From positions 293-64,292 of the forward strand of contig JAPPFK010000152.1 of assembly GCA_028823885.1 (NCBI GenBank): DNA of 64,000 bases, written 5' to 3'. The position numbers and the translations under genes were made by a program. Below the pieces are notes generated by a model. That model saw only the letters and a program-made list of their open reading frames with translations. It was not told the DNA's origin and made no database searches. Shown piece by piece: positions 6,611 through 24,647 of this stretch. Position 1 is the first letter of the stretch. Each line of letters opens with the position of its first letter. The DNA comes from Rhodospirillales bacterium (GTDB lineage Bacteria; Pseudomonadota; Alphaproteobacteria; Rhodospirillales; UBA2165).

Positions 6611-7294
6611 TTAAGCGGGAGGAATTACGAGATCCACGACCTCGGACAGCGAATCAATCCGGAAGTCCGCCATTTCCCGCTCGGATTCGTCTTTGGCATA
6701 CCCGTAGTTGACGCCGATTGACGGAACACCGGCGTCTCGGGCCGCGAGAAAATCGCTGCGGCTGTCACCGACAAATACACTCGAGTGAGCGGGCGTCTCC
6801 ATGAGTGACAGCGTCTCCAGGAGGTGGCGGCCGTCGGGTTTGGGGTAGGTGACATTGTCGCCGCCGGTAACGCCGCAAAACATATGGCTGAGCCCCAGCT
6901 CGCTGAGAACCACGAGGATCATCTCGTAGGGCTTGTTGGAACAGATGCCGAGCTTCAGTCCAGCCGACAAAAGCGCCCTCAGCGCCTCTTCGGCGGTTGG
7001 GTAAATCACCGTCTTCTCAACGGGCCGCGCCCGATACTGTTCGATGAACATGTCGACCGCGGCCTCCACTTGCCCGGCTGCCGCCTCCTCGCCCGTTGCG
7101 GTGAACGCACCCTCGATCATGTACCGAGCGCCATGCCCAACCAGCGCCCGAACCCCATCCAGCGCCAAAGCCGGCCGGTCAAACTCGGCCAGCATCCTAT
7201 TGAGCGCCGCGGCGACATCGGGAACACTGTCGACAAGGGTGCCGTCGAAATCAAAAACCACGGACGCGCGCGATCCAAGTGCCGGAATAGCCAT
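6611..7294 (-). CDS. gph: HAD-family phosphoglycolate phosphatase
   Basis: 227 aa with HAD motif I VVFDFDGTLVDS, then CSNKP and FVGDSRSDFLAARDAG. This is the intact copy of the repeated segment. Confidence 0.8.
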   Translation of the reverse strand: MAIPALGSRASVVFDFDGTLVDSVPDVAAALNRMLAEFDRPALALDGVRALVGHGARYMIEGAFTATGEEAAAGQVEAAVDMFIEQYRARPVEKTVIYPTAEEALRALLSAGLKLGICSNKPYEMILVVLSELGLSHMFCGVTGGDNVTYPKPDGRHLLETLSLMETPAHSSVFVGDSRSDFLAARDAGVPSIGVNYGYAKDESEREMADFRIDSLSEVVDLVIPPA

Positions 7295-11430: not shown

Positions 11431-12507
11431 ATGCCCGCGACCAAGGATGACGTCCAGCGGTTCTGGGGAGCGCTCCACGACTCCCTCCACGCGGGGGGCG
11501 GGGACGGGCCTGGCCGCGGGGACCTGCTCCGGAGCCTCGACGACCTGGAGGACATGTTCCGCCTCCGCCGCCACATGGCGGTCGTGGAGATGCCCCTGCA
11601 GGCGCTCGAGGGTCTGCGGGTTCTGGAGGTGGGCTCGGGCGCCGGCGGTCATTCGGCCCTGTTCGCCCGCCACGGGGCGCGGGTGACGGCGGTGGACCTG
11701 ACGGCGGCGCGGACGCGCGCGACCCGGGCCAAATTCGACGTCCTGGGCGAGTCCGCCGCGGGTTGCCTGGCGGTGCAGGCGGACGCGGAGCGGCTGCCTT
11801 TCGCGGAGGACAGCTTCGACATCGTCTATTCCAACGGCGTCCTTCACCACACGCCGGACACGGAGGCCGCCGTCGCCGAAGTCCGCCGCGTTCTCAAGCC
11901 CGGGGGGAAGGCCGTAATCATGCTCTACTGCAAGTCCTCCTGGCACTATTGGATCAACCTTTGGCTCTGCGTCGGCGTGCTCATGGGCAAGGCGTTCCGG
12001 GACCGCCACTGGCTGGGCAAGGCGACGGAGTGGGGCGGCGGCCACGCTCAGACGGTCGAGAACCCCGTCACCCGCTGCTACACCGCCGCCGGCATCCGCC
12101 GGTTGTTCGCGGGCTTCGCCGGGCTGAGCCTGCGCAAGAGCGAATTCTACTTCTACCTCATCCCGAAGCTCGGCCGGTTGTACCGGCGCTGGCAGGTGCG
12201 CCGCTACGGCACTCACCCGGGGGGCGTGCCGGTCTATGGGGAGCCGTGGCCGATCCAGTCGCCCCTGGAGTTCCTCCTCGGCCCGGTCATGGGCTGGGCC
12301 TGGTTCATCGCCGCCACGAAGCCGGCGCCGGGGCAAGGCGCCCTGGACGAACCGCCGCCGGCCGGGACCGCTTCGGACGGGTCATCCTTCATGCCTTCCC
12401 CGTCGCCGCCGCGACATGGAAGCAGCTCAAGCCAACAAAGGGGTTCCCCTTTCGACTCAAAACCGAGTCGTCCCGCACCAGGTCCGGTTCCCGTTCCATT
12501 GACATGA
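11431..12507 (+). CDS. class I SAM-dependent methyltransferase
   Basis: Motif I VLEVGSGAGGHSALFARHGARVTAVDL, motif II FDIVYSNGVLHH, and LKPGGKAVIM. The stop overlaps the next start (ATGA at 12504-12507). Confidence 0.75.
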   Translation: MPATKDDVQRFWGALHDSLHAGGGDGPGRGDLLRSLDDLEDMFRLRRHMAVVEMPLQALEGLRVLEVGSGAGGHSALFARHGARVTAVDLTAARTRATRAKFDVLGESAAGCLAVQADAERLPFAEDSFDIVYSNGVLHHTPDTEAAVAEVRRVLKPGGKAVIMLYCKSSWHYWINLWLCVGVLMGKAFRDRHWLGKATEWGGGHAQTVENPVTRCYTAAGIRRLFAGFAGLSLRKSEFYFYLIPKLGRLYRRWQVRRYGTHPGGVPVYGEPWPIQSPLEFLLGPVMGWAWFIAATKPAPGQGALDEPPPAGTASDGSSFMPSPSPPRHGSSSSQQRGSPFDSKPSRPAPGPVPVPLT

Positions 12508-14321
12508 TCGCCTCGGCAAGAAAACTCTACGATCTGATCGCACCGGCTTCGCGCGCCAGGATCCTGTTCCTGATAGTGCCGATGCTCATAACAGCCGTTC
12601 TCGAAATGGCGAGCATCGGAATGGTGCTTCCCGTGGTTCACATTTGGTTTGCGGGCGATACCGGTACCGGCCCCTTGGCAACGATCACCCGGTTCCTGCC
12701 GGACGCGTTGACGAAGAATTCCGGGGTCTGGCTGATCGTGCTCTTTGCAGCGCTCTTCGTCGTGAAGAACGTGATGGTTTTCGGCCTGACCCATCTCGTC
12801 AATCTGCTGGTTTACCTGGCGGCGGCGGATTTCATTTTCCGCCTGCATGGGGTCTATACCCGGCGCTCGCTGCTGTTCCATACCCGGAACAACAGCGCGG
12901 CGCTCCTCCGCAATCTCTTCGCCGGCGCCGGACAATCCTTTGAATGCATACGCATCTTCCTGCTGATGGTTCTCGATTTCCTATTGATGGCCGTGGTGAT
13001 AGCGCTGCTGCTGGCCGTGGAGCCCGTGGTGACGCTGCAACTGGCCGCCCTGATGCTGGTTGCCGGCCTGGTATTTTACAGGCTGGCCGCCCCGGCATTC
13101 CGACGGTGGGGCGAGAAGACAATGGAGCTCGAGGGCCACCTCATAAAATGGATCAACCAATCCTTCGACGGCATTCGCGACGTCAAAATCCTGAACGCCC
13201 ATGACCACGTCAATCGACACGTTGGAGACGTCGCCCGGGAGCGTGGAATTTTCCTGAGTTGGGCAACCTCGTCACTCCAGATACCCCGCCTGCTCATCGA
13301 AACGGTCGTGATAATCGGGTTCGTCCTGCTGGCAAGCTGGCTGGTGTCGGCGCGGGGCGCGACGGCCGAGGCGGTCAGCCTTCTGGGACTGTTCGGCATG
13401 GCCGCCTTGCGAATCATGCCGTCGGTCAATCGCATCTTGTCGAACGCGTCGAATCTGAAGAACCGCGCGGCCTACATCGATGCGGTCCACCACGATTACA
13501 CGATAGCCGAGGAAGCCGGCACGAACGAAGAACGGCAAATCGACCGGGCCGGGCTCGAGTTTAACCACGGGATCGTGCTCGACGGCGTGAACTTTCATTA
13601 TGACGAAACGGGAACGCCGGCCGTCGCGGACATTGATCTGACAATTCCCAAGGGGTTCAAGGTCGGCATTGTCGGTCCCTCCGGAGCCGGCAAGACAACG
13701 TTGGTCGATCTGTTTCTGGGGCTGCTCGCACCCCGGTCGGGCCGGCTATTGGTCGACGGAAAAGACATTCACGACAATCTTCGGGCATGGCAGGACCTGA
13801 TCGGCTACGTGCCCCAACAGCCGTTCTTGATTGATGACACCCTGCGCAGAAACATTGCCTTTGGCCTGGATGATGAGGATATCGACGAACACCGGTTGGA
13901 GATCGTCGTCGCTTCGGCCGACCTCGGCGGGGTCGTCGGGGATTTGGAGCATGGGCTCGATTCGGTGTTGGGCGAGAAAGGAGCGCGCATATCCGGCGGC
14001 CAACGGCAGAGAGTGGCGGTGGCGCGCGCTCTCTACCGCAACCCGGAGGTTCTGGTCTTCGACGAGCCGACATCCGCGCTCGACAATCAAAGCGAAGCCG
14101 AGTTCGTAAGCAACATCGAACGGCAAAGCGAGGCCGGAAAAACGATTTTGGTGGTCGCCCACCGGCTTAGCACCGTACGCCGTTGCGACTTGATCATATT
14201 CCTGAAGAACGGACGGATTGCCGGCCAAGGCAACCTGAACGAGCTTATGCAAAGCAACGACGAGTTCCGCGGCCTGGTGGAGATGGGCAATGTGGTGCAG
14301 CCGGTCGATCAGGATGGATGA
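12504..14321 (+). CDS. fused ABC transporter permease/ATPase (MsbA/PglK-like exporter or flippase)
   Basis: Internal ATG at 12504 (MIASARKLYDL) of the 852-aa ORF. Six-TM N-terminal domain, then Walker A GPSGAGKTT, signature ISGGQRQR and Walker B VLVFDEPTSALD. Confidence 0.85.
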   Translation: MIASARKLYDLIAPASRARILFLIVPMLITAVLEMASIGMVLPVVHIWFAGDTGTGPLATITRFLPDALTKNSGVWLIVLFAALFVVKNVMVFGLTHLVNLLVYLAAADFIFRLHGVYTRRSLLFHTRNNSAALLRNLFAGAGQSFECIRIFLLMVLDFLLMAVVIALLLAVEPVVTLQLAALMLVAGLVFYRLAAPAFRRWGEKTMELEGHLIKWINQSFDGIRDVKILNAHDHVNRHVGDVARERGIFLSWATSSLQIPRLLIETVVIIGFVLLASWLVSARGATAEAVSLLGLFGMAALRIMPSVNRILSNASNLKNRAAYIDAVHHDYTIAEEAGTNEERQIDRAGLEFNHGIVLDGVNFHYDETGTPAVADIDLTIPKGFKVGIVGPSGAGKTTLVDLFLGLLAPRSGRLLVDGKDIHDNLRAWQDLIGYVPQQPFLIDDTLRRNIAFGLDDEDIDEHRLEIVVASADLGGVVGDLEHGLDSVLGEKGARISGGQRQRVAVARALYRNPEVLVFDEPTSALDNQSEAEFVSNIERQSEAGKTILVVAHRLSTVRRCDLIIFLKNGRIAGQGNLNELMQSNDEFRGLVEMGNVVQPVDQDG

Positions 14322-14345: not shown

Positions 14346-16019
14346 GTGCCGGGAAATTTGGTGCCGGTCTCCCTAAGGCATTCGAGAAATGCGCGGCTGG
14401 CGGGCGGCCAAATGGTCTGGCTTGCGATCACCGGATCGTCGTGCCGGCTGCCGCCGGACCGGATGCTGCCCGAAGTCGGGCGACAACTCGAAGAGTCCTA
14501 CGAAGCGGTTTGTGGGCAGTGGATGTCGCTTGGCCGCAGGTTCTCCAAGGAACGCCGGGGTTGGTTGGCCGATATGCCCACGGCTGCCGTCGATATTTGT
14601 GATTTCGGCCTCATGCTGGCCTGGAGCGGCTTGGTCTCGGGACTCGCCCGGCAGGAGCGGGAAGTGCTCGTCGTATGCGACGACCCTTGGATGTTTCGGC
14701 ATCTGGGAACCTTGCCGGGCGTGACGGCGCATGGCGGCGTTGCATTATGGCGGCACCGGCTGAGGCTGCTCCTGCGCGGCTACGCTTCCCGTCTCAAAGT
14801 CTCACTGCGGGTAGCGCTGGCTGCGCTGCTCTACCGGTCGCAGCGGCGGCGGCATGTGATCAACCCCGGGGCCCCCGCGGTCGTCGCTTACGGTCACCCG
14901 TCCAGCCGGGGAGACGGATATGATGCATATTTCGGCGATCTCGTACTCCGTAATCCCCAAATCCTGCGAATACTGCACACGGACCTTATCGGCGATCGCA
15001 TACGGACCCTAACGACGGAGCGGCATTCGGCCAGTTTTCACGCCTGGGGAAATCCGCTCTTTGCGCTCACCCTGCCATTCGTTCGATGGAAGCCCCTGCT
15101 CGGTGAAGGCGACAAACCATATGCCTGGCTCGTCCGCCGGGCGGCCGAAACCGAGAATGGAGGCGGCGCTCTCGCCATGACCCGATGGCAAAATCACTGT
15201 CACGAGAATTGGCTCGAGAGCGTACGTCCGCGTTGCGTGGTTTGGCCCTGGGAGAATCACCCATGGGAACGGGATTTCGTTCGGCGATGCGATAACCTTG
15301 ATATCGAAACTCGAGGGTACCAGCACACGGTTGTCGGCCGGCACCGGCTCAACTTCAGCCCGAAAACGAATTTCGACGACGAGCGCAGTCTGCCGAACCG
15401 AATAATCTGCAACGGCCCGGCATATTTGGAACAACTGACCCAATTCGGTCTCGATCCCGCCCGGCTGATCGTCGGGGGCGCATTTCGATTTCCCTTGGTC
15501 GGCCATGACCATTACGACCCTGAAGGCCCGGTTTACGTGGCGCTGTCCCACGTCACCGGCATCGCGTCGCAAATGTTGGCCGCCATCGAATCCCTGCCGG
15601 CAAAATGCGCCAAATTCGTGGTCAAGAGCCATCCCATGTATCCCGTGGATTTTGACGAGAGTGAGAACATTAGCCGTACGCAGGCAACAATTCCGGAATT
15701 TCGAGGAATGCGGGCGGTACTGTACAGTACCGGGGCAACCGGACTTGAGGGGGCGATGATCGGGGTGCCGACCTGGCGGTTTCGTCCGGCTGACCGGATC
15801 GCTCCCGATATTCTGCCGAACAATGTGAGGTTGCCGTCGATAGCCAGGAGTGATATCGAATCCATCCTCGATCCACAGCCTGAATTCGCGCCGGTAGACT
15901 GGAATCAGGTCATGGCGCCGGTGGATATGGCGGTTTGGGCACGCGAGTTGGGCCTACCCGCTGTCCGGCAAGATGTCCGCGGGCCGGCTCACCTTGACGG
16001 TGCCGGCGGAGTTCCCTGA
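14346..16019 (+). CDS. hypothetical protein, possible GT-B-like/capsule-type enzyme
   Basis: 557-aa ORF (alternative ATG at 12 412 is not meant; the alternative ATG is at 14412). The C-terminal region (KFVVKSHPMYPVDFDE, AVLYSTGATGLEGAMIGVP) follows the same Rossmann-like pattern as the C-terminus of 7491-9236. No diagnostic motif. Confidence 0.4.
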   Translation: MPGNLVPVSLRHSRNARLAGGQMVWLAITGSSCRLPPDRMLPEVGRQLEESYEAVCGQWMSLGRRFSKERRGWLADMPTAAVDICDFGLMLAWSGLVSGLARQEREVLVVCDDPWMFRHLGTLPGVTAHGGVALWRHRLRLLLRGYASRLKVSLRVALAALLYRSQRRRHVINPGAPAVVAYGHPSSRGDGYDAYFGDLVLRNPQILRILHTDLIGDRIRTLTTERHSASFHAWGNPLFALTLPFVRWKPLLGEGDKPYAWLVRRAAETENGGGALAMTRWQNHCHENWLESVRPRCVVWPWENHPWERDFVRRCDNLDIETRGYQHTVVGRHRLNFSPKTNFDDERSLPNRIICNGPAYLEQLTQFGLDPARLIVGGAFRFPLVGHDHYDPEGPVYVALSHVTGIASQMLAAIESLPAKCAKFVVKSHPMYPVDFDESENISRTQATIPEFRGMRAVLYSTGATGLEGAMIGVPTWRFRPADRIAPDILPNNVRLPSIARSDIESILDPQPEFAPVDWNQVMAPVDMAVWARELGLPAVRQDVRGPAHLDGAGGVP

Positions 16020-16049
16020 TGATGCGGCGAATTGGTGGAATTACGGACG

Positions 16050-17255
16050 ATGAGTAAGTTTGTCTGCAAACACCCGTGGACTCATTTCGAGGTCAACAAC
16101 CCCAACGGCGATGTCACCATGTGCTGCAACAACGACATGGTCATGGGGAATGTGAACGAAGGTTCCATCGAGGAAATTTGGAACGGCGAGAAGTTTCAAG
16201 ATGCTCGTCGTCGGATGCGCGACGATGGCGCACTCTCGATGTGTCCGCATACCTGCCCGGTACTTCAAGGCGGCAAGAAGTACGAGAACATCGACTGGCT
16301 GGACAAGCTCAGCGAGGATGGCGAACCCCATAAGAACGCCGTCCTTAACGACGAGGAATACGATCGCGGCGATACGGCCCTTGAATCCACGCCAAGGTGG
16401 TTGCGATTCACCTACTCGTACGCGTGCAACCTGGATTGTTATCACTGTTACCAGCGTGAGGACGCAAAGATAAGAGCCAAGCTGCCGGACAAATTTATGG
16501 CGGAAATGGCCGAGTTCGCTGAACGGAGCCAGGTGGTGTTTCCGTTTGGCGGCGAACCGTTCTTTTTCAGTCCCGTCGTTGCCTTTCTCGAGAATTACAA
16601 TACCAACCTCGAAACCCGCTTCATGTTCATCACGAACGCGACCCTGCTCACCGATCGGATTTACGAGATTCTGGAGAAGTTGACCATCTCCGGTTTCGCC
16701 GTGTCCCTGGATGCAGCCTCCGAACCGAGCTTCGATTTACTCCGCGTCCGTGGCCGCAACGCCACATGGCAAGCGGTGATGGAGAACCTCAGGCGGTTGA
16801 GCGAGTTGAAACAACGAAAAGGCTTCAGCCTTACCCTCGGCATGACCGTCAACCGCGTCAACTGCCATGAAATCGAGGATTTCGTCGACCTGGCGTTGGA
16901 GCATGACAGCGAGCCGCTCCTTCTTTTGGTCTCAAATCCCTTTCAGACCGTCGATTTCCAAAAATCCTACCTGGTTTTCGACGACAAACAGCTGCAGGAC
17001 ATGTTTGCGCAAATTGAGCGCTCATTGGCCAAAGTCCGGCAGGCCGGCTTGGAAGATGCGGAGGTTCACTTGAAGCTCTTGCGAGCCAATCTCCGAAATC
17101 ACCAGCTCTCGGAAAACAACCCGGCCCTTTTTCGGGCCAAGTCAACGGCAAGAGCCGCCTACCACCAGTTGCCGGAATTTCTGCAACTGCCGATCCGCCG
17201 CGTGGTACAGGGAGCGCGCGGCAAGCGGCTCGCGGAGAATCTCCCCGATGACTAA
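16050..17255 (+). CDS. radical SAM protein with an N-terminal SPASM/twitch-like Cys-rich domain
   Basis: Radical SAM triad CNLDCYHC (CxxxCxxC) at ~aa 120. This is preceded, not followed, by a SPASM-like block: CKHPWTHFEVNNPNGDVTMCCNNDMVMGNVNEGSIEEIWNGEKFQDARRRM, then MCPHTC. ATG 16050 chosen; the ORF opens at 16032. Confidence 0.7.
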   Translation: MSKFVCKHPWTHFEVNNPNGDVTMCCNNDMVMGNVNEGSIEEIWNGEKFQDARRRMRDDGALSMCPHTCPVLQGGKKYENIDWLDKLSEDGEPHKNAVLNDEEYDRGDTALESTPRWLRFTYSYACNLDCYHCYQREDAKIRAKLPDKFMAEMAEFAERSQVVFPFGGEPFFFSPVVAFLENYNTNLETRFMFITNATLLTDRIYEILEKLTISGFAVSLDAASEPSFDLLRVRGRNATWQAVMENLRRLSELKQRKGFSLTLGMTVNRVNCHEIEDFVDLALEHDSEPLLLLVSNPFQTVDFQKSYLVFDDKQLQDMFAQIERSLAKVRQAGLEDAEVHLKLLRANLRNHQLSENNPALFRAKSTARAAYHQLPEFLQLPIRRVVQGARGKRLAENLPDD

Positions 17256-17308
17256 CCCGCGTCCCGGCAGCTGAATTGTGCATCCGTACGTAGGACAACC
17301 CCCCACCG

Positions 17309-18064
17309 ATGAATGAGCTGAAATCAAGAGTCCGGCGTGGTGAGGTTTGTGTCGGCGGCTGGCTCACCGCCGCCTCCGGGCAAGTCGCCGAAGCGCTGGC
17401 AAGTTGCGGTTTCGACTGGCTTGCCGTGGACATGGAACATGGTGCGGCGGGATTGACCGAGGTCGAATCCGCATTTGTCGCCTGTGAGCGTCATGGTGTT
17501 GCTCCCCTTGTGCGGCTGCCGTCCGGGGATCCGATTTTGGCGCGCCGGGTCCTGGACCTAGGCGCGCACGGTGTGATTGTGCCCCAGGTGGAAAATGCCG
17601 GTGAGTTAAACGACTTCATCGGTCAGCTGGTGTATCCCCCAAAGGGGCGCCGCGGCGTCGCCCTGGGCCGATTCAATGCATGGGGGGATCAATTTACCGA
17701 GTATTTTTCATTCGAACCGCTGATCGCCGCCCAGATCGAGTCCCCTACAGGCGTCGAACAATCCCATGAGATTGCCGCATTGGAAGCCGTCGATGTTCTG
17801 TTCCTTGGGCCCTATGATCTCTCTGCCGGCCTTGGCGTTCCAGGTGACTTCGATTCGGACCGCTATGCCGCCGCCGTCGAGAGGGTGCGCTCGGCCTGCC
17901 AACCGCACAACACCGCATTGGGCTTGCATCAGGTCACCCCTGACGGGGAAGAACTTCGGCAACGCATCGCCGAGGGCTTCCGTTTTCTCGCATACGGCAC
18001 CGACATGATCGCCCTTCGACATGCGTTGGGCGAGGTACGGCAACTCAGGAATGAACGCCGTTAA
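17309..18064 (+). CDS. HpcH/HpaI-family (class II, pyruvate-dependent) aldolase
   Basis: 251 aa: GGWLTAASGQVAEALASCGFDWLAVDMEHGA, VRLPSGDP, IVPQVENA, QIESPTGV, LFLGPYDLS. Its stop overlaps the next start (TAATG). Confidence 0.8.
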   Translation: MNELKSRVRRGEVCVGGWLTAASGQVAEALASCGFDWLAVDMEHGAAGLTEVESAFVACERHGVAPLVRLPSGDPILARRVLDLGAHGVIVPQVENAGELNDFIGQLVYPPKGRRGVALGRFNAWGDQFTEYFSFEPLIAAQIESPTGVEQSHEIAALEAVDVLFLGPYDLSAGLGVPGDFDSDRYAAAVERVRSACQPHNTALGLHQVTPDGEELRQRIAEGFRFLAYGTDMIALRHALGEVRQLRNERR

Positions 18065-18828
18065 TGCGGATATTCGGGGTGATTCCCGCCCGGATGGGCT
18101 CGTCCCGATTCCCCGGGAAGCCATTGGCGCCGCTCATGGCCATGCCAATCGTGTGTCATGTCTTTCATCGAAGCCGGATGTTCGGTGAATTCGAACGGCT
18201 CGTCGTTGCAACCTGCGACCAGGAGATCGAAGACGCCGCCACCGGTTGCGGTGCGGAAGCGGTCACCACATCCGACCGCCACGAACGCGCCACGGATCGT
18301 GTCGCCGAGGCAATCGCGGTGCTTGATCTTCGGCCCGCTCCGGACGACCTGATAGTCATGGTGCAGGGTGACGAAGTATTCGTGTCGCCTGAAATGATCG
18401 GGAATGTCGTCGCGGCATACAAACCAACCGACAATGTTGCGGTCGTCAACTTGGCGTCCCGCCTGTCCCGTCCGGAAGATTTCGCCGACGCCAATACGGT
18501 AAAAGTCGCTATCGCCCCGGACGGCCGGGCCCTGTACTTCTCGAGATCGCCGATCCCCTCCCAATCCCGCGAATCCGCCGCCCCGATCTATCAGCAGACC
18601 GGGCTAATGGCGTTCCCGGCGAAATTTCTGAGCGAATTCGCCAGGCTTCCTTCAACGCCATTGGAGCGGATCGAATCGGTCGACCTTCTCCGGCTTCTTG
18701 AAAACGGGCATCGGGTTCAGATGGTGAAGACCGAGATTGAAACGATCGGCATAGACACGCCGGAAGACCTGGCGCGCGCGGAAACAATGATGCGCCATGA
18801 TCCGTTGGTTTCGGAATATATAACCTGA
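18064..18828 (+). CDS. CMP-ulosonic-acid synthetase (KdsB / acylneuraminate cytidylyltransferase family)
   Basis: 254 aa with N-terminus MRIFGVIPARMGSSRFPGKPLAPL, typical of the CTP_transf_3 family. Also VMVQGDE and IGIDTPEDLARAE. Confidence 0.8.
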   Translation: MRIFGVIPARMGSSRFPGKPLAPLMAMPIVCHVFHRSRMFGEFERLVVATCDQEIEDAATGCGAEAVTTSDRHERATDRVAEAIAVLDLRPAPDDLIVMVQGDEVFVSPEMIGNVVAAYKPTDNVAVVNLASRLSRPEDFADANTVKVAIAPDGRALYFSRSPIPSQSRESAAPIYQQTGLMAFPAKFLSEFARLPSTPLERIESVDLLRLLENGHRVQMVKTEIETIGIDTPEDLARAETMMRHDPLVSEYIT

Positions 18829-18845
18829 ATAGTTGACCCGACCTC

Positions 18846-19721
18846 GTGCTGGCTGCAGCCATCAATCTAGCCAAATCCCTGGGCGTTGATACGCGCGCCG
18901 TTTATCACGGCATATCGCGCGCCAGTCTTGACGCCGCGATCAAGGAGCAAAAACTCGATCTGCTTCGAGATCGATTGCGGGAGATCGTACCGGATCTGAG
19001 CCGACAATATACCGGCGGACAGGATGCGGAAGAGTACCGGCGCTACTGGGAAATCAAGCTCCGCGGCCTGCACGCCTTTCAGGTCCACGGAATCCTGGAC
19101 GCGTTGGACACGATTGGCGGCGGACCCCTCGATATCGTGGACATAGGTGATTCGTCGGGAAATCACGGCAAATACGTCAAGGCTCTCTCGGGAGACAGCC
19201 GCGTCGCAAGGTTTACCAGTGTAAACGTCGACCCGGCAGCAGTAGAGAAAATCAAGCGGCAAGGCGGCGACGCCCACCTAGCCAAGGCCGAAGAGTTCGA
19301 CTATTCCGCCGTGCCGTCCGATTTATATCTGTGCCTTGAGACGTTGGAGCATTTGACGGATCCGACGCGGTTTCTTCACAAATTGGCGGAGGAAGGCGTG
19401 GCGGATCATTTGCTCATAACCGTTCCTTACCGCCGCCAAAGCCGTTTCGGCGGCAGCCTGCTGGACCAAATCGATACCGATCCGGCTGCTGCGTTAACTC
19501 CCGAAAGCGTTCATATTTTCGAACTTTCCCCAACGGATTGGCGGCGGCTAGCCAGGTTTGCCGGCTACCGCACGGTCTTCGAACGCATCTATCTGCAGTA
19601 CCCGCTCCGCGGGTTGATGCGGATAACGGCGCCACTGTGGAGAAAATTGGATTTCGAGGGATTTCTAATGCTCCTGCTCGCCCGCGACCTCCGCGTCGCG
19701 AAACGATACACCGGGTGGTAG
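18846..19721 (+). CDS. probable class I methyltransferase-fold protein
   Basis: LDIVDIGDSSGNHG (motif I-like), SVNVDP (acidic post-I), LYLCLETLEHLTDPTRFLHKLAEEG (motif II/III-like). Weak assignment. Confidence 0.5.
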   Translation: MLAAAINLAKSLGVDTRAVYHGISRASLDAAIKEQKLDLLRDRLREIVPDLSRQYTGGQDAEEYRRYWEIKLRGLHAFQVHGILDALDTIGGGPLDIVDIGDSSGNHGKYVKALSGDSRVARFTSVNVDPAAVEKIKRQGGDAHLAKAEEFDYSAVPSDLYLCLETLEHLTDPTRFLHKLAEEGVADHLLITVPYRRQSRFGGSLLDQIDTDPAAALTPESVHIFELSPTDWRRLARFAGYRTVFERIYLQYPLRGLMRITAPLWRKLDFEGFLMLLLARDLRVAKRYTGW

Positions 19722-19728
19722 GGGCCGA

Positions 19729-20772
19729 ATGACCAAACTCCGGATCGGCATCGCGGGTTTCGGCGTGGTCGGCAAAAGGCGGCGCAAGTTCATAGACGCT
19801 CATCCCGATCTGACGACTGTCGCCGTCTGCGACCGCACGTTCGAGCGCCAGCAGACGGCGGATGACGGTCTTGATTCCTTTTCGGACTACCGGCGGCTGC
19901 TGGAAAAGGAACTTGATGCCCTGTTCGTCTGCATGACCAATGACATGGCGGCCGAAGTGACCATTGCCGGCCTGGAGCGCGGCCTGAACGTGTTCTGCGA
20001 AAAACCGCCGGGCCGCGACCTCGAAGATATCGCAAGGGTCATTGCCGTCGAGAGAAACCGCCCCGGGCAAAAATTGATGTACGGCTTCAATCATCGCCAC
20101 CACGATTCGGTACGCGATGCCCTCGAACTCGTCAGGTCCAATGACCTCGGCAGGATCATCAACCTGCGGGGCGTATACGGGAAATCCAAAATAATCAATT
20201 TTGAAACCGATTGGCGCACGCAGAGAGCAATCGCGGGGGGCGGCATTCTGCTCGACCAGGGCATTCACATGGTCGACTTGCTGCGGCTGTTTGCCGGGGA
20301 GTTCGTGGACGTCAAAAGCTTCGTTTCAAACGATCACTGGGGCCACGATGTCGAGGACAATGCCTATGCGCTGTTGCGCACGGGCGATGGTGTGGTCGCC
20401 ATGCTGCATTCCTCGGCGACCCAATGGCAGCACAGATTCAGCTTGGAGATCGCCCTGGAGCACGGCGCGATCATCCTGTCCGGCCTCCTGACAAGCTCCA
20501 AGAGTTACGGCGCCGAAACCCTGACCGTCTTCAACAAGACCCCGGCCGATCGAGGGGACCCCGAAGGCATAACCACCGCCTATGATGCCGACCCGTCCTG
20601 GGCGGCGGAAATATCCGACTTCGCCGATGCCGTGCTGAATGACGCTCCGATGAAGTTCGGAACCTCGCGCGACGCCTGGGAGACCATGAAACTCGTGAGC
20701 CGAATCTACTGTGCGGACGCCGAGTGGAAAGGGCGCTGGAATTTGACCGACGATGCAGCCTTGCCAGGTTGA
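19729..20772 (+). CDS. Gfo/Idh/MocA-family NAD(P)-dependent oxidoreductase
   Basis: 347 aa with N-terminal Rossmann LRIGIAGFGVVGKRRRKFIDAHPDL, then CEKPPG and GFNHRHH. Confidence 0.85.
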   Translation: MTKLRIGIAGFGVVGKRRRKFIDAHPDLTTVAVCDRTFERQQTADDGLDSFSDYRRLLEKELDALFVCMTNDMAAEVTIAGLERGLNVFCEKPPGRDLEDIARVIAVERNRPGQKLMYGFNHRHHDSVRDALELVRSNDLGRIINLRGVYGKSKIINFETDWRTQRAIAGGGILLDQGIHMVDLLRLFAGEFVDVKSFVSNDHWGHDVEDNAYALLRTGDGVVAMLHSSATQWQHRFSLEIALEHGAIILSGLLTSSKSYGAETLTVFNKTPADRGDPEGITTAYDADPSWAAEISDFADAVLNDAPMKFGTSRDAWETMKLVSRIYCADAEWKGRWNLTDDAALPG

Positions 20773-20773
20773 T

Positions 20774-22690
20774 CTAGTTCGACAGGCGGCGTTCCAGTTC
20801 GGCGATGACGGACGGCCCGTCATAGACCGCCGTGATGACCCCGGCGAAGACCGGTTCGAGAGAATCGATGACGGGCTTCAGGTACAAACCAAACCGCACT
20901 TTTGAATAATCGATCTCGACCGTCTCGGTGGCTGCATTCGGATTCTGCGACCGGGTCAGTTGCACGGTCGAGACCAGGAAATACCGAAACTTGAGCTGCT
21001 TGGCGCGCCGGACGTACTCCTCGATGGACATCGCCGGCGGACTGGATTGCCGCAGCCACCAATCGCCTTCATCGTCGAAATAAGTCCTGACGACGTTTTG
21101 ATGCGGACAATAGAACGAATGAAAATCGACCGTTGCCGAGTAATAGTATTCGCCGGAACGCAGATTTTGCCTGAGAAAGTTGCAGGTCAGGAAGTGGTTC
21201 AGCCTCATCGTGGGCGTCGTGGATTGATATTCGGAAGGGCTCATGATCCCCAGGGCGACAGGCAGGCGGATCGCCGCGTAGGCGCCAATAAACATTCCCT
21301 GAACTGCCGCGTAAACGAGAGCAACGGCCAGAAAGGCCGGCAACAGGACTTTCCGCCCCCGCATCAGGCCCCAAGCCCACGTCATGCCGTCGGCCGCCAT
21401 CCCGGCGACGAACGGAAGCACCGGAATGAGAAACCGCACCTGTTGGGAAAACAGGAAAAACCAAAGTACGAAGTAAATCGCGACGACAATTCCGGGGATC
21501 ACCCACCGCCGGCGCCGATCCTGGTCGAGCAGGATCAAAGGGAACAGCGCGAGCAGGTATGGCGCGCCAAGCATCATGCCGTCAAAATAATGCATGGGGA
21601 ATACGGACATCATCCAAGGCGCCAGCAGGAGGTCGAGCGCGTTCCTGCCCGTGCCAAACGAATCCGCAACGTCCGAAAGAAAATGCGGACCATCCGGGTT
21701 CAGGAGTGAGACGAACAGAGGGTAGACGGGATTTCCGGTGATCACGGCGTTGCGCGCCAGGAATGGAAATAGAACCGCAACGCCGCCGGCCGTCACGGCG
21801 GCGAGCTCCCGCCATTTTTTTTGCCGGCCCAGTTCAAAGAGAACGATGGGCGCGAAGGCGAGGGCAATCCCGAAACCATGGTACTTGGTGAGAATCGACC
21901 CGCCGAGCACCACGCCGAACAAAATCGACAGACGCGCCTCCGGCGATTTCCTGAGCGCCAGATAAACCAGCATGGAGGAGACGACGAACGCCGCGACGAC
22001 CGTGTCCGTTTCCGCCGTCGCCATTTGCCAAATGACGGCACGAATACTCAGGAAGAATATTCCGGCGATGATCGACGCGGCGGTGGCCGCCCCCAGCCGG
22101 CGTGCCACCAGGCCTGCGCCGACGGCGGCGGCAAGATCAAAAAAACCGTGAAGTATTTGCGCGGCGCCCGGACCTGCCAAGACCAGGGAATATCGGGAGA
22201 TATTCGTGCCGAAATTGGGATAAAAGGACTGCGGCAGATGATGGGCCCACGGGATTTCAACAAATCCCCGCGCGACGTCCATGGCCGGAACCGTCAGATG
22301 ATAGGTCATGCTGTCGTAGTCGCTCGGCGGCGCAAGCCCTTGCAGCAACGTCAAAACGGCAACGACGCCGGCAACGGCGAGCAGGCCAAGCTGAAACGGT
22401 TCGCCCGCCGGGAAGCAGGATTTGACGATGAGACGCCAATTTATGCGCCGCAGGCCCGGCACGGCGGCGGCCATCGCAACAATGGTCAGACCCCCCATGG
22501 ACGGCAGGTCCAAACGCCATGAGGAAACCGCGAAAATCCCGAAATAAAAGAGGATCGCTCCGACGATAAACGAGAGCAGCAGATTTTCGTGGTCCGTCAA
22601 CCTGCGCGCCCTATCGAACCAGGCGAGCGCGGCGGCTCCAAGTCCGATAGTGGTCGCCAGATAGACCGCTACGACGGCAAGATCAATCAT
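20774..22690 (-). CDS. GT-C-type (ArnT/PMT-like) polytopic membrane glycosyltransferase candidate
   Basis: 638 aa with more than 10 predicted TM segments and a ~170-aa soluble C-terminus. The first external loop, APPSDYDSMTYHL, resembles the acidic D/E-x-x-Y loop of ArnT/PMT enzymes. It is the only minus-strand gene inside the cluster. Confidence 0.5.
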   Translation of the reverse strand: MIDLAVVAVYLATTIGLGAAALAWFDRARRLTDHENLLLSFIVGAILFYFGIFAVSSWRLDLPSMGGLTIVAMAAAVPGLRRINWRLIVKSCFPAGEPFQLGLLAVAGVVAVLTLLQGLAPPSDYDSMTYHLTVPAMDVARGFVEIPWAHHLPQSFYPNFGTNISRYSLVLAGPGAAQILHGFFDLAAAVGAGLVARRLGAATAASIIAGIFFLSIRAVIWQMATAETDTVVAAFVVSSMLVYLALRKSPEARLSILFGVVLGGSILTKYHGFGIALAFAPIVLFELGRQKKWRELAAVTAGGVAVLFPFLARNAVITGNPVYPLFVSLLNPDGPHFLSDVADSFGTGRNALDLLLAPWMMSVFPMHYFDGMMLGAPYLLALFPLILLDQDRRRRWVIPGIVVAIYFVLWFFLFSQQVRFLIPVLPFVAGMAADGMTWAWGLMRGRKVLLPAFLAVALVYAAVQGMFIGAYAAIRLPVALGIMSPSEYQSTTPTMRLNHFLTCNFLRQNLRSGEYYYSATVDFHSFYCPHQNVVRTYFDDEGDWWLRQSSPPAMSIEEYVRRAKQLKFRYFLVSTVQLTRSQNPNAATETVEIDYSKVRFGLYLKPVIDSLEPVFAGVITAVYDGPSVIAELERRLSN

Positions 22691-22982: not shown

Positions 22983-24647
22983 ATGTTGAACTCAGCAACC
23001 GGGACCATCGTCCGGCGGGCGCGTCAGATCGCGGCCGACCCGGTGCTGCGGCGATGGCTGGTCAGGCGGGCCTTGCGGCTTACGCCGGGCGCCCCCGGCT
23101 ACACGCCCCACCAACCGCCCTATCTGACGGATCGCCTCCCGATTCGCACGGGGCCTCCCGACCCCTCGCCGCCATTCCTGGAATTGCCTCCGGATGCCCC
23201 CACGTCGTCATTGAAGCTCAGTTTGGCCAGCCGGACCATCGAGGTGGAACCCGGTGACGAGACCCAACTCTTCGAACGCCGATTTCCCGATCTGGAAGAT
23301 CATTTGGCCTTGCACCGTTTCTCCTGGCTGCCCTTGGCGAAGAACATCGACCCTGCTTGGGTGAGCGCCATATTCGGCGTTTGGCGGGAGTTCATCCGAC
23401 GTTCGAGCGATCCTTGGATCTGGCATCCTTATACGGCGGCGGAGCGCGCCGTGAATTTGCTGGAATTCGGCCGGGCCCACGGCCTCCCCGCCCCCCTGGC
23501 GGACACCCTGGACCTGCTCGCGGATCATGCCGCGCGTATCGGCAACGCGCTCGAGTATTTTGGCCGGCACAACACATCCAACCACCTGGCCAACAACGGC
23601 CGCGGACTGTATCTGCTGGGCCTTGAACTCGGTCTCGCCGAGGCCCGGGAGATCGGCCGTATCATTCTCATGAAGGAAGCGGAGCGGGTGTTCATGCCGT
23701 CAGGGGTCCTGCGGGAGGGGTCCAGCCACTACCATCTGCTTCTAGCTCGCAACTATTTTCAGGTTGCCAACGCCGCCGCGGCCCGAAACCGCCCGGAGGC
23801 AGCCGGCCTCTCGGCGATTGCCGAAAGGTCGCTGCGAGCCGCCGCGGCACTCGTTCTTCCAGGCGGTTTGCCGTTGATCGGGGACATTTCACCCGATTGT
23901 CCGCCTTCGGACCTGATGGCGGCGCTCCCCGGCCAGCCGCCCGCACCGCCGGACATATTGGATCGGATGGCCGCCGACGGCTGGCTCCGATTTGCCGGCG
24001 GCTCGTGGACCGGCCTCTGGTACGTGCCGCCCGACGGATGGCCGCCCATGCCCGGGCATGGTCACAACGACTGTGGATCGTTCGAGCTGCATTTCGGCGA
24101 TCAACCCATATTCGTCGATCCGGGCCGGGGCCGGTATTGCGAAACGGCCGAAGCCGCCCATTATCGGTCCGGCGCCGCGCACAATGGCCTCGGCATCGAT
24201 GGCCTCGACGCCTACCCCGCCAACAGGCCCTATTATTCGGAGGAATTTCGCCGGATCGTTTGCGGAGGTCCGCCGGACCTGACCCATACGGCCGACAGCG
24301 TGAGCCTGCGGTTCGAAGGATTTAAGCGGCGGCGCGGTCTAGGCGCCGTGGAGCGGCATTGGCGGTTTGCCGGAGCCGATGTCGTGATCGCCGATACCGT
24401 CGAGGGTTCAGGCAGACACAAGATCACCCGCCGAATCGCCACGCCATTATCGGCGGAACTCTTCGACAACGAGGTCAAGCTCTCATCTTCGGCGGAAAAT
24501 TGGTCCGTCAGTATGCCGGGCGACGTGTCTCTTCAATCCATCACAAGATGGCGCGCCTATGGGCGCGGGACGCCGATGTCTCAAATCGTCATTGAGGAGA
24601 CGGCGGCGCTTCCGTGGCGGGGCGAGATACGGGTCCGGGCCATATGA
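22983..24647 (+). CDS. heparinase II/III-family protein (copy 2)
   Basis: 554 aa with PGHGHNDCGSFELHFGDQPIFVDPGRGRY and AAHNGLGIDG, typical of the heparinase II/III-like C-terminal domain. Its stop overlaps the next start (ATGA). Confidence 0.7.
   Translation: MLNSATGTIVRRARQIAADPVLRRWLVRRALRLTPGAPGYTPHQPPYLTDRLPIRTGPPDPSPPFLELPPDAPTSSLKLSLASRTIEVEPGDETQLFERRFPDLEDHLALHRFSWLPLAKNIDPAWVSAIFGVWREFIRRSSDPWIWHPYTAAERAVNLLEFGRAHGLPAPLADTLDLLADHAARIGNALEYFGRHNTSNHLANNGRGLYLLGLELGLAEAREIGRIILMKEAERVFMPSGVLREGSSHYHLLLARNYFQVANAAAARNRPEAAGLSAIAERSLRAAAALVLPGGLPLIGDISPDCPPSDLMAALPGQPPAPPDILDRMAADGWLRFAGGSWTGLWYVPPDGWPPMPGHGHNDCGSFELHFGDQPIFVDPGRGRYCETAEAAHYRSGAAHNGLGIDGLDAYPANRPYYSEEFRRIVCGGPPDLTHTADSVSLRFEGFKRRRGLGAVERHWRFAGADVVIADTVEGSGRHKITRRIATPLSAELFDNEVKLSSSAENWSVSMPGDVSLQSITRWRAYGRGTPMSQIVIEETAALPWRGEIRVRAI

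Follow-up and report, generated by a model that had tools for sequence, protein, structure and literature searches.

In the CMP-Kdo pathway (the isomerase KdsD, the Kdo8P synthase KdsA, the phosphatase KdsC, and the cytidylyltransferase KdsB) a three-carbon keto-acid unit is joined to an aldose, the resulting 2-ulosonic acid is activated as its CMP-sugar, and a transferase installs it; the nonulosonic acid pathways (NeuB/PseI/LegI with NeuA/PseF/LegF) likewise feature CMP activation by a CTP_transf_3 enzyme encoded within a surface-glycan locus. All characterised CTP_transf_3 enzymes act, to our knowledge, on 2-ulosonic acids, and we know of no non-ulosonic substrate. The condensation of pyruvate with an aldose to a ulosonic acid by NanA or Kdo aldolase is chemically established and common in chemoenzymatic synthesis, and the catabolic aldolases HpaI, GarL, and RhmA/YfaU each yield pyruvate and an aldehyde in the retro reaction. 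We are aware of no natural biosynthetic pathway where an aldolase feeds a CMP-sugar synthetase, and found no published paper on an aldolase-to-CMP-sugar-acid route. A comparable gene grouping occurs in the Leptospira rfb-adjacent ‘sru’ locus, which brings together an HpcH-type aldolase, a KdsB-like cytidylyltransferase, a phosphoheptose isomerase, an inositol monophosphatase, and methyltransferases (bioRxiv 10.1101/771931). Its likeness to the locus described here is by annotation alone, no function or sugar being assigned to the sru genes; the Leptospira-named NCBIfam families LIC13510 and LIC_10190 also weakly match our GT-B protein and 638-aa membrane protein, respectively.

The window, by which we mean the whole 64-kb stretch of DNA analysed, carries the following co-oriented string of genes and flanking features:

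10234..11373, + strand: sulfotransferase, first gene of the co-oriented string (Pfam Sulfotransfer_3, Sulfotransfer_1)
11431..12507, + strand: class I SAM methyltransferase (Pfam Methyltransf_11, 88.9 bits)
12504..14321, + strand: MsbA/PglK-like ABC exporter, fused permease and ATPase (ABC_tran; NCBIfam MsbA/PglK-like, ~266 bits, under the equivalog cut-offs)
14346..16019, + strand: conserved ‘hypothetical’ protein of predicted GT-B fold, candidate transferase for the CMP-activated acid (weak TIGR04326/LIC13510 match, E 2.4e-9)
16050..17255, + strand: radical SAM enzyme with N-terminal twitch/SPASM (Pfam SPASM, aa 6-69; Radical_SAM, aa 123-281, 79 bits)
17309..18064, + strand: HpcH/HpaI class II (metal-dependent) pyruvate aldolase, proposed to form the C-C bond (PF03328 HpcH_HpaI, 109 bits)
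18064..18828, + strand: KdsB-like CMP-ulosonate synthetase of a distinct aldolase-linked subgroup (PF02348 CTP_transf_3, 152 bits)
18846..19721, + strand: methyltransferase-fold protein, family MT16 of our own clustering (Methyltransf_11, 24.6 bits, cut-off 21.2)
19729..20772, + strand: Gfo/Idh/MocA NAD(P) oxidoreductase (three Gfo/Idh/MocA Pfam domains)
20774..22690, - strand: convergent polytopic membrane protein, 638 aa, LIC_10190-family/PMT_2-like (NF047510, 63 bits, cut-off 100; weak PMT_2 match)
22983..24647, + strand: heparinase II/III-like protein (Hepar_II_III_C)

The preliminary description had drawn this unit as five tightly packed, co-oriented genes (16050-20772, + strand), and all five ORFs are present with the families it assigned, as is the TAATG junction where the aldolase stop codon (TAA, 18062-18064) overlaps the cytidylyltransferase start (ATG, 18064-18066) by 1 nt. 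The extent given was too short: the string begins at or before 10234, adding the sulfotransferase, the 11431-12507 methyltransferase, the ABC exporter, and the GT-B protein, and the intergenic gaps from the latter through the oxidoreductase gene measure 30, 53, -1, 17, and 7 nt. The exporter start at 12504 is a predicted one (the mechanical ORF runs from 11763, and the L081 homologue has 605 aa). L081, a relative at 88-96% identity, has a near-identical operon, with the same methyltransferase gene upstream of its ABC gene.

The reported lack of KdsA, NeuB, or any other PEP-dependent synthase is borne out within the 64-kb window: tblastn with E. coli KdsA and with a NeuB-like protein from related loci gave no match, and no such enzyme turned up among the remaining large ORFs in Pfam and NCBIfam scans. 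Compared with the CMP-Kdo pathway, the window has no KdsA, and the C-C bond is proposed to be formed by a class II aldolase, of HpcH/HpaI fold, that would use pyruvate and not PEP; compared with the nonulosonic acid pathways, it has neither a NeuB-type synthase nor a hydrolysing 2-epimerase. From the genes present and their order, the intact catalytic residues, the conserved pairing, and the non-Kdo signature of the activating enzyme, we propose, with a probability of roughly 55%, that genes ~14346-20772 form a cassette within an O-antigen/capsule-type locus for making a CMP-activated acidic keto-sugar and adding it to the glycan, with no PEP-dependent synthase involved. Counting against this reading is that a pyruvate aldolase has a less favourable equilibrium than PEP-dependent synthases have.

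YfaU, GarL, and HpaI, the enzymes against which the preliminary description had suggested comparing the aldolase, are its best PDB sequence matches (E 3e-34 to 3e-30), and their catalytic His/Arg/Glu/Asp align with its H44, R69, E144, and D170, which are invariant across 33 homologues. All catalytic residues being kept, the class II active site is, as judged by alignment, intact. The protein shares fold and catalytic residues with HpaI, GarL, and RhmA/YfaU but falls far under the equivalog cut-offs of HpaI, GarL, and RhmA (144 vs. 369, 131 vs. 407, and 112 vs. 441 bits) and belongs to a separate clade with invariants of its own (DMEH for DGEH; H207-Q208), and in contrast to the degradative operons of those enzymes it sits in a biosynthetic one. 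The synthetic reaction proposed for it is that of NanA and Kdo aldolase run from pyruvate and an aldose, although NanA, a class I (Schiff-base) enzyme, has a different fold and a catabolic physiological role. Some aldolases of the same clade have a 2-hydroxyacid dehydrogenase beside them, no cytidylyltransferase, and catabolic-looking surroundings; the family is therefore not dedicated to glycan synthesis.

Co-occurrence of HpcH-family and CTP_transf_3 genes, which had been put forward as a check, was counted over 49 loci of related aldolases, each with 3 kb or more of sequence to either side. A CTP_transf_3 gene lies within 6 kb of the aldolase in 39 and within 1.2 kb in 36, the two genes usually abutting in most loci; KdsB-like genes are present in 28 and PseF/NeuA-like genes in 12, the latter type replacing the former as the aldolase's partner in about a quarter of loci. 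KdsA is found in 0/49 and NeuB in 6/49. L017 has a NeuB and NeuA-like pair of its own in addition to the aldolase and KdsB-like pair, and the aldolase pair is therefore separate from the nonulosonic acid pathways. The loci come from more than 10 phyla, including Actinomycetota, Chloroflexota, and one candidate-phyla-radiation (CPR) bacterium. Among the sources are Rhodospirillales, Hyphomicrobiales, Campylobacterota, Desulfovibrionaceae, Elusimicrobiota, SAR86, SAR324, and Pelagibacteraceae, together with Acidimicrobiia (L029), Microbacteriaceae (L045), Anaerolineales (L050), and Moraniibacteriota (L032), the last four being lineages expected to be without LPS Kdo.

The commonest third partner of the pair is a phosphoglycerate-dehydrogenase (PGDH)-like D-2-hydroxyacid dehydrogenase (34/49 loci), with a HAD phosphatase beside the pair in 17/49 and sometimes a GmhA-like isomerase; none of the three is found in the window’s operon, so the window pathway may differ from the majority form. 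The dehydrogenase also counts against the proposed cassette function, since by reducing the 2-oxo group it could destroy the anomeric centre needed by a KdsB-type enzyme. With these partners the acid might instead derive from hydroxypyruvate or tartronate semialdehyde, the acceptor might be a phosphorylated aldose, or the product might be reduced to a 2-hydroxy acid. In the rival that fares best, if still an improbable one, aldolase and dehydrogenase would together make an open-chain 2-hydroxy acid (2,4-dihydroxy or glycerate-type), and the CTP_transf_3 enzyme would cytidylylate this non-sugar acid itself or its phosphate, giving a (phospho)hydroxy-acid substituent and not a glycosidic ulosonic acid. 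The PGDH/glyoxylate-reductase-like dehydrogenase is often accompanied by the HAD phosphatase and stays beside the aldolase even in loci that have no cytidylyltransferase, and an alpha-hydroxy acid may mimic the HO-C-COO- motif of an anomeric ulosonate. Against it stand the exclusively ulosonic substrates known for CTP_transf_3 enzymes and the operons of the window and its closest relative L081, which contain no such dehydrogenase yet keep both aldolase and cytidylyltransferase. Dehydrogenase and phosphatase could equally be a supply route upstream of the aldolase, from 3-phosphoglycerate to hydroxypyruvate or tartronate semialdehyde, with the end product still a ulosonic or ulosaric acid. In some relatives the pair is joined by a GmhA-like SIS isomerase and by a phosphatase of the HAD or IMPase type, an arrangement that, by analogy, mirrors KdsD, KdsC, KdsA, and KdsB, the aldolase taking the place of KdsA.

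Somewhat less probable is that the cytidylyltransferase is an extra KdsB serving a Kdo-containing O-antigen or capsule, its substrate being ordinary Kdo, or a close derivative, from a housekeeping KdsA encoded elsewhere in the genome; the aldolase would then have an unrelated task, such as the synthesis or recycling of a small keto-acid substituent. All best PDB matches of the enzyme are indeed KdsB, it passes the NCBIfam KdsB ‘subfamily’ cut-offs (NF009905, 261.7 vs. 255; NF003952, 260.6 vs. 193), and capsule loci with an additional kdsB are common. It falls just short, however, of the kdsB equivalog TIGR00466 (151.8 vs. cut-off 155.2). It retains its CTP and metal residues, with R10, R15, K19, Q98, D100, R157, R213, and D235 all in place, and bears the substitutions D50C, S74R, H181Q, Y185M, E210D, and Q211L; the corresponding signature (D50C, S74R, H181Q, Y185I/M, E210D, and Q211M, with a loop deletion) recurs in 35-39 of 39 aldolase-linked members. 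In the plasmid L085, an example of such a capsule locus, by contrast, kdsB is accompanied by kdsA and kpsF and its product keeps the canonical Kdo-pocket residues, as does a Streptomyces plasmid KdsB. E. coli KdsB contacts the 5-OH of Kdo through hydrogen bonds from Y185 and Q98 and does not accept 5-deoxy-Kdo (PMC12199768); replacement of Y185 therefore removes a known Kdo contact in the aldolase-linked subgroup. Nor is an LPS Kdo pathway expected in the Actinomycetota, Chloroflexota, and CPR loci that carry the pair, and an abutting or overlapping aldolase in about three quarters of loci is unlike a chance neighbour. The residue pattern fits a distinct KdsB-like subgroup acting on an acid other than standard Kdo. 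The conserved pair, the intact aldolase active site, and the distinct subgroup speak in favour of the earlier proposal that the aldolase makes the acid which the cytidylyltransferase activates.

In 8/49 loci an AroB-related cyclase (TIGR04425, 444 bits, above cut-off) and an adjacent SDR lie beside the cassette, and the Leptospira grouping includes a shikimate/quinate dehydrogenase along with the aldolase, KdsB-like, inositol monophosphatase, and phosphoheptose isomerase genes (bioRxiv 10.1101/771931). This would suit a DAHP- or Kdo8P-like phosphorylated 3-deoxy-ulosonate that is cyclised to a carbocyclic (quinate-like) acid and activated on its tertiary hydroxyl, with the window as a reduced form; but neither the window nor most loci encode a cyclase, the cyclase could belong to an independent neighbouring sugar pathway, and a CMP-carbasugar would be a poor glycosyl donor, leaving this a slim prospect. 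Slimmer still is a purely co-regulated aldolase that trims or salvages a longer 2-keto-3-deoxy acid in the cleavage direction: its characterised close homologues (HpaI, GarL, and RhmA/YfaU) are all catabolic and certain clade members lie in catabolic-looking loci, but the gene overlaps the activating enzyme’s start codon within a biosynthetic operon, Pfam and NCBIfam scans showed no nearby gene for a transporter, dehydratase, or kinase such as a catabolic route would have, and the cytidylyltransferase pairing is kept across phyla.

The remaining genes bear on what may happen to such a sugar. The 14346-16019 protein, whose gene immediately precedes that of the aldolase in Rhodospirillales relatives, has no Pfam match, but its AlphaFold2 model (mean pLDDT 91.4) confidently predicts a GT-B transferase fold; Foldseek returned generic matches (TM 0.3-0.5) to GT-B glycosyltransferases and 2-epimerases, WaaA ranking 31st. 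The radical SAM enzyme carries a CNLDCYHC cluster motif and a twitch region matching BtrN, scores 109.9 bits against NF033640 (cut-off 170), and has homologues in four loci (L005, L011, L081, and L082). For the 18846-19721 protein no NCBIfam or PDB match was found, and homologues at 39-56% identity occur in L002, L003, L005, L006, L011, L019, and L028. The Gfo/Idh/MocA oxidoreductase (best PDB match 3CEA, annotated as myo-inositol 2-dehydrogenase, E 8e-28) is the most conserved cassette member, and its 60-68% identity across Rhodospirillales, Elusimicrobiota, and Xanthobacteraceae loci makes a core step more likely than decoration. Extra redox enzymes, this one in the window and the 2-hydroxyacid dehydrogenase elsewhere, further set these loci apart from the CMP-Kdo pathway. 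Downstream, homologues of the 20774-22690 membrane protein adjoin the cassette in L008 and L020; it may be a GT-C-type protein that acts on glycans, and its connection with the cassette is uncertain. Heparinase II/III-like homologues follow the cassette in L001, L007, L014, L081, and L082.

Returning to the proposed aldolase-built acid, we infer the chemical steps, the acid’s identity and chain length, and the order of tailoring as follows. The aldolase most likely builds a non-Kdo 2-ulosonic acid that is then CMP-activated and transferred: a metal-bound enolate of pyruvate, or possibly of hydroxypyruvate, would attack the aldehyde of an aldose or aldose-like acceptor, and the resulting 4-hydroxy-2-oxo acid would cyclise to the 2-ulosonic acid. 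The translationally coupled KdsB-like enzyme would join the anomeric 2-OH to CTP to give the CMP-ulosonate, and the upstream GT-B protein would add the sugar to the growing glycan, with export helped by the MsbA/PglK-like ABC protein. The oxidoreductase may provide a core redox step, either to ready the acceptor or to set a keto or hydroxyl group in the product, and tailoring of the sugar by oxidation, epimerisation, or methylation may fall to the twitch radical SAM enzyme and the methyltransferase next to it; the tailoring roles of all three are guesses. The cassette, unlike the CMP-Kdo pathway, is also found in bacteria without LPS. Its aldolase-cytidylyltransferase pairing, which recurs across many phyla, probably marks an undescribed, PEP-independent way to an activated acidic sugar.

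The five cassette genes sit in a stretch of lower GC content (57-63%, from ~3.5 kb to ~37 kb, vs. 65-70% in the flanks of the window), a surface-polysaccharide locus that also encodes an O-antigen-ligase/Wzy_C protein, glycosyltransferases of the GT2, GT4, GT8 and WecA-like (Glycos_transf_4) types, a DegT aminotransferase, a C-methyltransferase, a NeuD-like acetyltransferase, several epimerase/dehydratases and a WbpM-like Polysacc_synt_2 protein. All five forward-strand reading frames delineated in the preliminary description are borne out, each with a significant family match, as is the TAATG overlap between the aldolase stop and the cytidylyltransferase start, where a single base is shared; the remaining gaps measure 7-53 nt. 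The limits drawn around the five genes do not hold, as the co-oriented string continues upstream to a sulfotransferase. The relevant features are as follows:

1448-3163, forward strand: heparinase II/III-like gene, the first of two
10234-11373, forward strand: sulfotransferase, opening the co-oriented string
11431-12507, forward strand: methyltransferase, same string
~12504-14321, forward strand: MsbA/PglK-like ABC exporter, same string
14346-16019, forward strand: 557-aa protein without a Pfam domain and of putative GT-B fold (hereafter the GT-B protein), same string
16050-17255, forward strand: radical SAM protein
17309-18064, forward strand: HpcH/HpaI aldolase
18064-18828, forward strand: KdsB-like cytidylyltransferase of the CTP_transf_3 family
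18846-19721, forward strand: methyltransferase
19729-20772, forward strand: Gfo/Idh/MocA oxidoreductase
22983-24647, forward strand: heparinase II/III-like gene, the second of two

The sulfotransferase raises the possibility that the locus glycan is sulfated besides bearing an acidic sugar, and the second heparinase-like gene may be functionally tied to the same glycan, e.g. through chain processing or epimerisation. The lack of a PEP-dependent synthase gene at the locus, likewise reported earlier, extends to the whole 64 kb, across which NeuB-like and KdsA-like sequence is undetectable; no kdsA, kdsC or kdsD/kpsF was found in the 64-kb window or among the 80 related loci retrieved with the aldolase, the query for KdsA being an E. 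coli sequence. The closest relative (L081, 88-96% identical) carries the ABC exporter, GT-B, radical SAM, aldolase, cytidylyltransferase, methyltransferase, Gfo and heparinase-like genes in the same order.

Several further observations concern the surroundings of the cassette. Homologues of the 22983-24647 heparinase-like gene lie downstream of it in five related loci (L001, L007, L014, L081 and L082), and a 638-aa polytopic membrane protein encoded convergently (20774-22690, reverse strand), with a weak match to the Leptospira LIC_10190 family and to PMT_2 (GT-C-like), has homologues adjoining the cassette in two others (L008 and L020). A 581-aa reading frame inside the polysaccharide locus (7491-9236, forward strand) has no Pfam or NCBIfam match at the thresholds used. 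Elsewhere in the window, a low-GC island (48-54% vs. ~65%) at 40767-43268 on the forward strand holds two adjacent genes, one with a MazG C-terminal domain (PF18722, 211 bits) and the other with the helical domain of 5-hmdU DNA kinase (PF18723, 351 bits), which together are hallmarks of thymidine hypermodification, usually that of phages. Just upstream of the island lies a 449-aa reading frame (39377-40726, forward strand), likewise unmatched in Pfam and NCBIfam at those thresholds, and just past it one of 1615 aa (44070-48917, reverse strand).

The aldolase spans positions 5-221 of the 221 in PF03328 at 109.4 bits (cut-off 25), and the solved structures nearest to it in sequence are those of YfaU/RhmA, GarL and HpaI (E 3e-34 to 3e-30). 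Four residues, H44 (within a DMEH motif), R69, E144 and D170, are invariant across 33 aldolase homologues and correspond in alignment to the catalytic His and Arg and the two metal ligands of YfaU, GarL and HpaI; in HpaI/YfaU the histidine serves in water activation, the arginine at the pyruvate carbonyl/enolate, and the glutamate and aspartate as metal ligands. We accordingly place the protein, on sequence grounds, in the HpcH/HpaI class II family and predict divalent-metal-dependent pyruvate aldol activity. Comparison with HpaI, GarL and YfaU, as envisaged in the preliminary description, thus finds shared catalytic residues but a separate clade and sub-cut-off scores: the protein falls under all catabolic equivalog cut-offs (HpaI, 143.9 vs. 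368.8; GarL, 131.1 vs. 406.75; RhmA, 111.9 vs. 441), and neighbour joining places the glycan-locus aldolases in a clade of their own, separate from HpaI, GarL and RhmA. Homologues at 50-60% identity are abundant, chiefly in metagenome-assembled genomes of Rhodospirillales and other Alphaproteobacteria. The clade is not purely biosynthetic, and same-clade aldolases accompanied by a 2-hydroxyacid dehydrogenase and no cytidylyltransferase occur in eight loci (L037, L040, L052, L054, L058, L062, L064 and L067) from Planctomycetota, Verrucomicrobiota, Kiritimatiellia and Rhizobium, in non-glycan, catabolic-looking surroundings.

The pairing with a cytidylyltransferase recurs widely. A profile built from the 33 aldolase homologues yielded the 80 loci from species-representative genomes, whose neighbours were scored by tblastn and by clustering of all reading frames, and counts were taken over the 49 loci having at least 3 kb on either side of the aldolase, with a partner required within 6 kb. 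Any CTP_transf_3 gene is present in 39/49 loci, in 36 of them within 1.2 kb and mostly immediately downstream, so that the pair whose co-occurrence had been put forward for counting proves conserved; the KdsB-like type accounts for 28/49 loci and the PseF/NeuA-like type for 12/49, and KdsA is found in 0/49. A genome typically has few CTP_transf_3 genes, and adjacency at this rate is therefore far more than chance would produce. Carriers of the pair include Rhodospirillales, Hyphomicrobiales, Campylobacterota (Thiovulum, Sulfurovum, Nitratifractor), Desulfovibrionaceae, SAR86, SAR324 and Pelagibacteraceae, as well as Elusimicrobiota, Acidimicrobiia, Microbacteriaceae, Anaerolineales and one Moraniibacteriota (CPR) genome. 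Lipopolysaccharide Kdo is not expected in Acidimicrobiia, Microbacteriaceae, Anaerolineales or Moraniibacteriota, and the cytidylyltransferase there consequently cannot serve lipid A core synthesis. Further, one locus (L017) holds a complete NeuB and NeuA-like set alongside the aldolase and KdsB-like pair, which argues that the pair constitutes a separate pathway and not part of nonulosonic-acid synthesis.

The cytidylyltransferase itself was examined by aligning 39 aldolase-linked homologues to the sequences of four canonical KdsBs, drawn from PDB alignments (E. coli numbering throughout). In this 39-member alignment the CTP-binding and two-metal residues R10, R15, K19, Q98, D100, R157, E204, E207, R213 and D235 are invariant, with R10, R15, K19, Q98, D100 and D235 kept in the window protein and in 39/39 aldolase-linked homologues. 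Conversely, positions invariant in KdsB are switched as a block (D50C, S74R, G75C/A, H181Q, Y185I/M, E210D and Q211M/L, with a shortened R164-F167 loop), each switch being found in 35-39 of the 39 aldolase-linked proteins, and the window enzyme carries H181Q, Y185M, E210D, Q211L and the shortened R164-F167 loop. H181, E210 and Q211 are residues that we take to belong to the Kdo pocket of KdsB. The canonical residues are retained in two controls, both plasmid-borne KdsBs: one adjoins kdsA and kpsF, and the other is a stand-alone Streptomyces protein. Most of the switches fall within the C-terminal domain (~residues 100-210), which is the Kdo-binding domain of KdsB (PMC3149649). In E. coli KdsB, Q98 and Y185 hold the 5-OH of Kdo, according to 2025 modelling on the crystal structure of KdsB with CTP and 2-deoxy-Kdo, and 5-deoxy-Kdo is no substrate for that enzyme (PMC12199768). 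With CTP and metal residues kept and Kdo-pocket positions switched, the protein reads as a KdsB-type catalyst with a predicted remodelled sugar pocket.

The cytidylyltransferase falls below the kdsB equivalog cut-offs, narrowly for TIGR00466 (151.8 vs. 155.2) and widely for NF003948 (165.9 vs. 281), but passes the looser 'subfamily' models NF009905 and NF003952, so that an annotation pipeline would name it KdsB. A plasmid collection gave no DNA match to the pair, and the best protein matches to the cytidylyltransferase there are ordinary KdsBs without an aldolase. On the linear plasmid of Streptomyces sp. NBC_01471 (locus L084), a stand-alone kdsB-annotated gene at 311006-311749 has a fully canonical Kdo pocket and neither an aldolase nor kdsA nearby.

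Among the remaining cassette members, the Gfo/Idh/MocA protein combines an N-terminal Rossmann domain with a C-terminal alpha/beta domain, scoring above the cut-offs of PF01408 (64.5 bits), PF22725 (89 bits) and PF02894 (45.8 bits), and reaches no equivalog cut-off (IolG, 91 vs. 355). It is the best conserved component of the cassette, with 60-68% identity from Rhodospirillales to Elusimicrobiota and Xanthobacteraceae, and usually follows the cytidylyltransferase, both of which point to a core step rather than decoration. In the Rhodospirillales group the gene for the GT-B protein immediately precedes that of the aldolase; among its homologues listed, one of them from the culturable Magnetospirillum aberrantis, there is no informative name and almost none has a Pfam domain. 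A confident AlphaFold2 model built on 42 homologues (pLDDT 91.4, pTM 0.91) retrieves, among the best 50 of 101 Foldseek matches (E <= 1e-3), GT-B glycosyltransferases or UDP-GlcNAc 2-epimerases, generic matches with TM 0.3-0.5 and 8-15% identity; the Kdo transferase WaaA appears at rank 31 with a low TM, and the Foldseek matches point to no CMP-sugar-specific family. From this predicted fold, the protein can reasonably be put forward as a candidate transferase for the activated acid. The radical SAM protein combines a Radical_SAM core (79 bits, aa 123-281) bearing a CNLDCYHC motif (CxxxCxxC) with a SPASM domain (52 bits, aa 6-69), and its match to NF033640 ('N-terminal twitch') spans aa 2-331 at 109.9 bits, below the cut-off of 170. 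Its SPASM/twitch domain is N-terminal, ahead of the core, the reverse of the usual order. The twitch region most resembles that of BtrN, which is a radical SAM alcohol dehydrogenase with an aminocyclitol substrate, and in relatives the gene tends to adjoin a methyltransferase of the same family as that at 18846-19721. The latter has a weak, above-threshold Methyltransf_11 match and no match in PDB or NCBIfam.

The comparative evidence for the cassette is strong, and on what is observed (which genes are present and in what order, catalytic sites that are intact, a pairing that is conserved and a specificity signature that is altered) we build a five-step scheme whose every reaction we infer and which we hold at a probability of roughly 0.55. 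The aldolase would join pyruvate (or, less likely, hydroxypyruvate) to an aldose-type aldehyde, and the resulting 4-hydroxy-2-oxo acid would cyclise to a non-Kdo 2-ulosonic acid of C5 to C8 or more. The KdsB-like enzyme would then turn the ulosonic acid into its CMP-glycoside and the GT-B protein would transfer the activated sugar, with the Gfo enzyme providing an obligatory redox step and the radical SAM protein and methyltransferase tailoring the sugar. Overall, such a pathway would work like those for Kdo and the nonulosonic acids, from which the cassette differs in having no KdsA or NeuB at the locus; its activator also departs from KdsB at Kdo-pocket residues, and, in contrast to NeuB-dependent clusters, the window has no NeuB-like match and a NeuB gene lies within 6 kb in just 6/49 related loci.

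The commonest third partner of the pair in other loci is a D-2-hydroxyacid dehydrogenase resembling phosphoglycerate dehydrogenase/glyoxylate reductase (34/49 loci; missing from the window), after which often come an extended SDR and a phosphatase of the HAD-IA type (17/49 loci for the phosphatase). Minimal cassettes (L035, L043, L044, L049, L066 and L075) consist of aldolase, cytidylyltransferase and dehydrogenase, at times with the phosphatase, and a 55%-identical relative (L082) has the order aldolase, cytidylyltransferase, Gfo, HAD, 2-hydroxyacid dehydrogenase. Loci from several phyla further include either a GmhA-like SIS isomerase or a protein resembling inositol monophosphatase. One possibility is that dehydrogenase and phosphatase act on 3-phosphoglycerate to provide hydroxypyruvate or tartronate semialdehyde, or that the phosphatase dephosphorylates a phosphorylated aldol product as KdsC does, with an ulosonic or ulosaric acid as the end product in either case. 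As a set, the SIS protein, phosphatase, aldolase and cytidylyltransferase mirror KdsD, KdsC, KdsA and KdsB, the aldolase occupying the KdsA slot, which lends modest support to this reading. It is also possible that the dehydrogenase reduces the 2-oxo group to give an open-chain hydroxy acid. A more exotic, carbocyclic or DAHP-like intermediate in some cassette variants is hinted at by an AroB-related 'sugar phosphate phospholyase (cyclizing)' gene (TIGR04425, above cut-off), always with an adjacent SDR and sometimes with a GmhA-like isomerase, beside the cassette in 8 loci (L002, L003, L005, L021, L023, L047, L055 and L060), but neither cyclase nor SDR belongs to the window operon.

Dehydrogenase, HAD, SIS, IMPase-like and AroB-like partners are all absent from the window operon. 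A HAD gene at 6611-7294 (reverse strand) passes the phosphoglycolate phosphatase equivalog cut-off, looks housekeeping and is probably not a cassette member. A GmhA-like SIS gene at 38758-39378 (reverse strand) lies beside purH and outside the glycan locus, and it too is probably no part of the cassette. From the neighbours considered (Gfo, 2-hydroxyacid dehydrogenase, HAD, SIS, IMPase, AroB-like, SDR), several schemes for the acceptor aldehyde fit and none is singled out; candidates are glyceraldehyde-3-P, erythrose-4-P, arabinose-5-P and tartronate semialdehyde, or alternatively hydroxypyruvate could be the donor.

In vitro synthesis of ulosonic acids by pyruvate aldolases (NanA, Kdo aldolase) is textbook chemistry, and to our knowledge PEP-dependent synthases make all the CMP-activated sugars described so far (Kdo, sialic, legionaminic and pseudaminic acids, Kdn). 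In line with the preliminary description, which knew of no demonstrated route of this kind, the searchable literature yielded no report of a natural biosynthesis in which an aldolase feeds a CMP-sugar synthetase and no paper connecting an HpcH-type aldolase with a cytidylyltransferase; subscription journals fell mostly outside the search, and earlier work is possible. Two structural parallels were dropped: Klebsiella K38 contains 3-deoxy-pentulosonic acid, with an aldolase unmentioned in the cps survey paper, and the 4-deoxy-2-hexulosonic acid of E. coli K3 came to us only as a citation. The only paper found to list both genes in one locus, a Leptospira comparative-genomics preprint (bioRxiv 10.1101/771931), makes no functional proposal, and its listing is consistent with the finding that two window proteins weakly match NCBIfam families named after Leptospira.

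The rule that such sugars derive from PEP-dependent synthases underlies both the annotation of genomes and the prediction of glycans. Our broader proposal, which we advance tentatively and at slightly less than even odds, is that a class II pyruvate aldolase replaces KdsA/NeuB for a family of CMP-activated acidic keto-sugars, amounting to a third, PEP-independent ulosonic route with dedicated KdsB-like/PseF-like activators in more than 10 phyla (including Leptospira O-antigen regions, SAR11, SAR86, SAR324, Campylobacterota, Gram-positive bacteria and CPR) and yielding one or more undescribed monosaccharides, possibly ulosaric, 3-hydroxylated or methylated. If true, many surface-glycan-locus genes automatically annotated as 'KdsB' or 'HpaI/GarL/RhmA aldolase' would be mis-assigned, and the naturally evolved aldolase and synthetase pair would be of use for making CMP-sugar analogues chemoenzymatically. 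Ulosonic-type acids could then be displayed by organisms that have neither KdsA nor NeuB, and the surfaces of abundant environmental bacteria and of pathogens such as Leptospira would bear one or more undiscovered acidic sugars.
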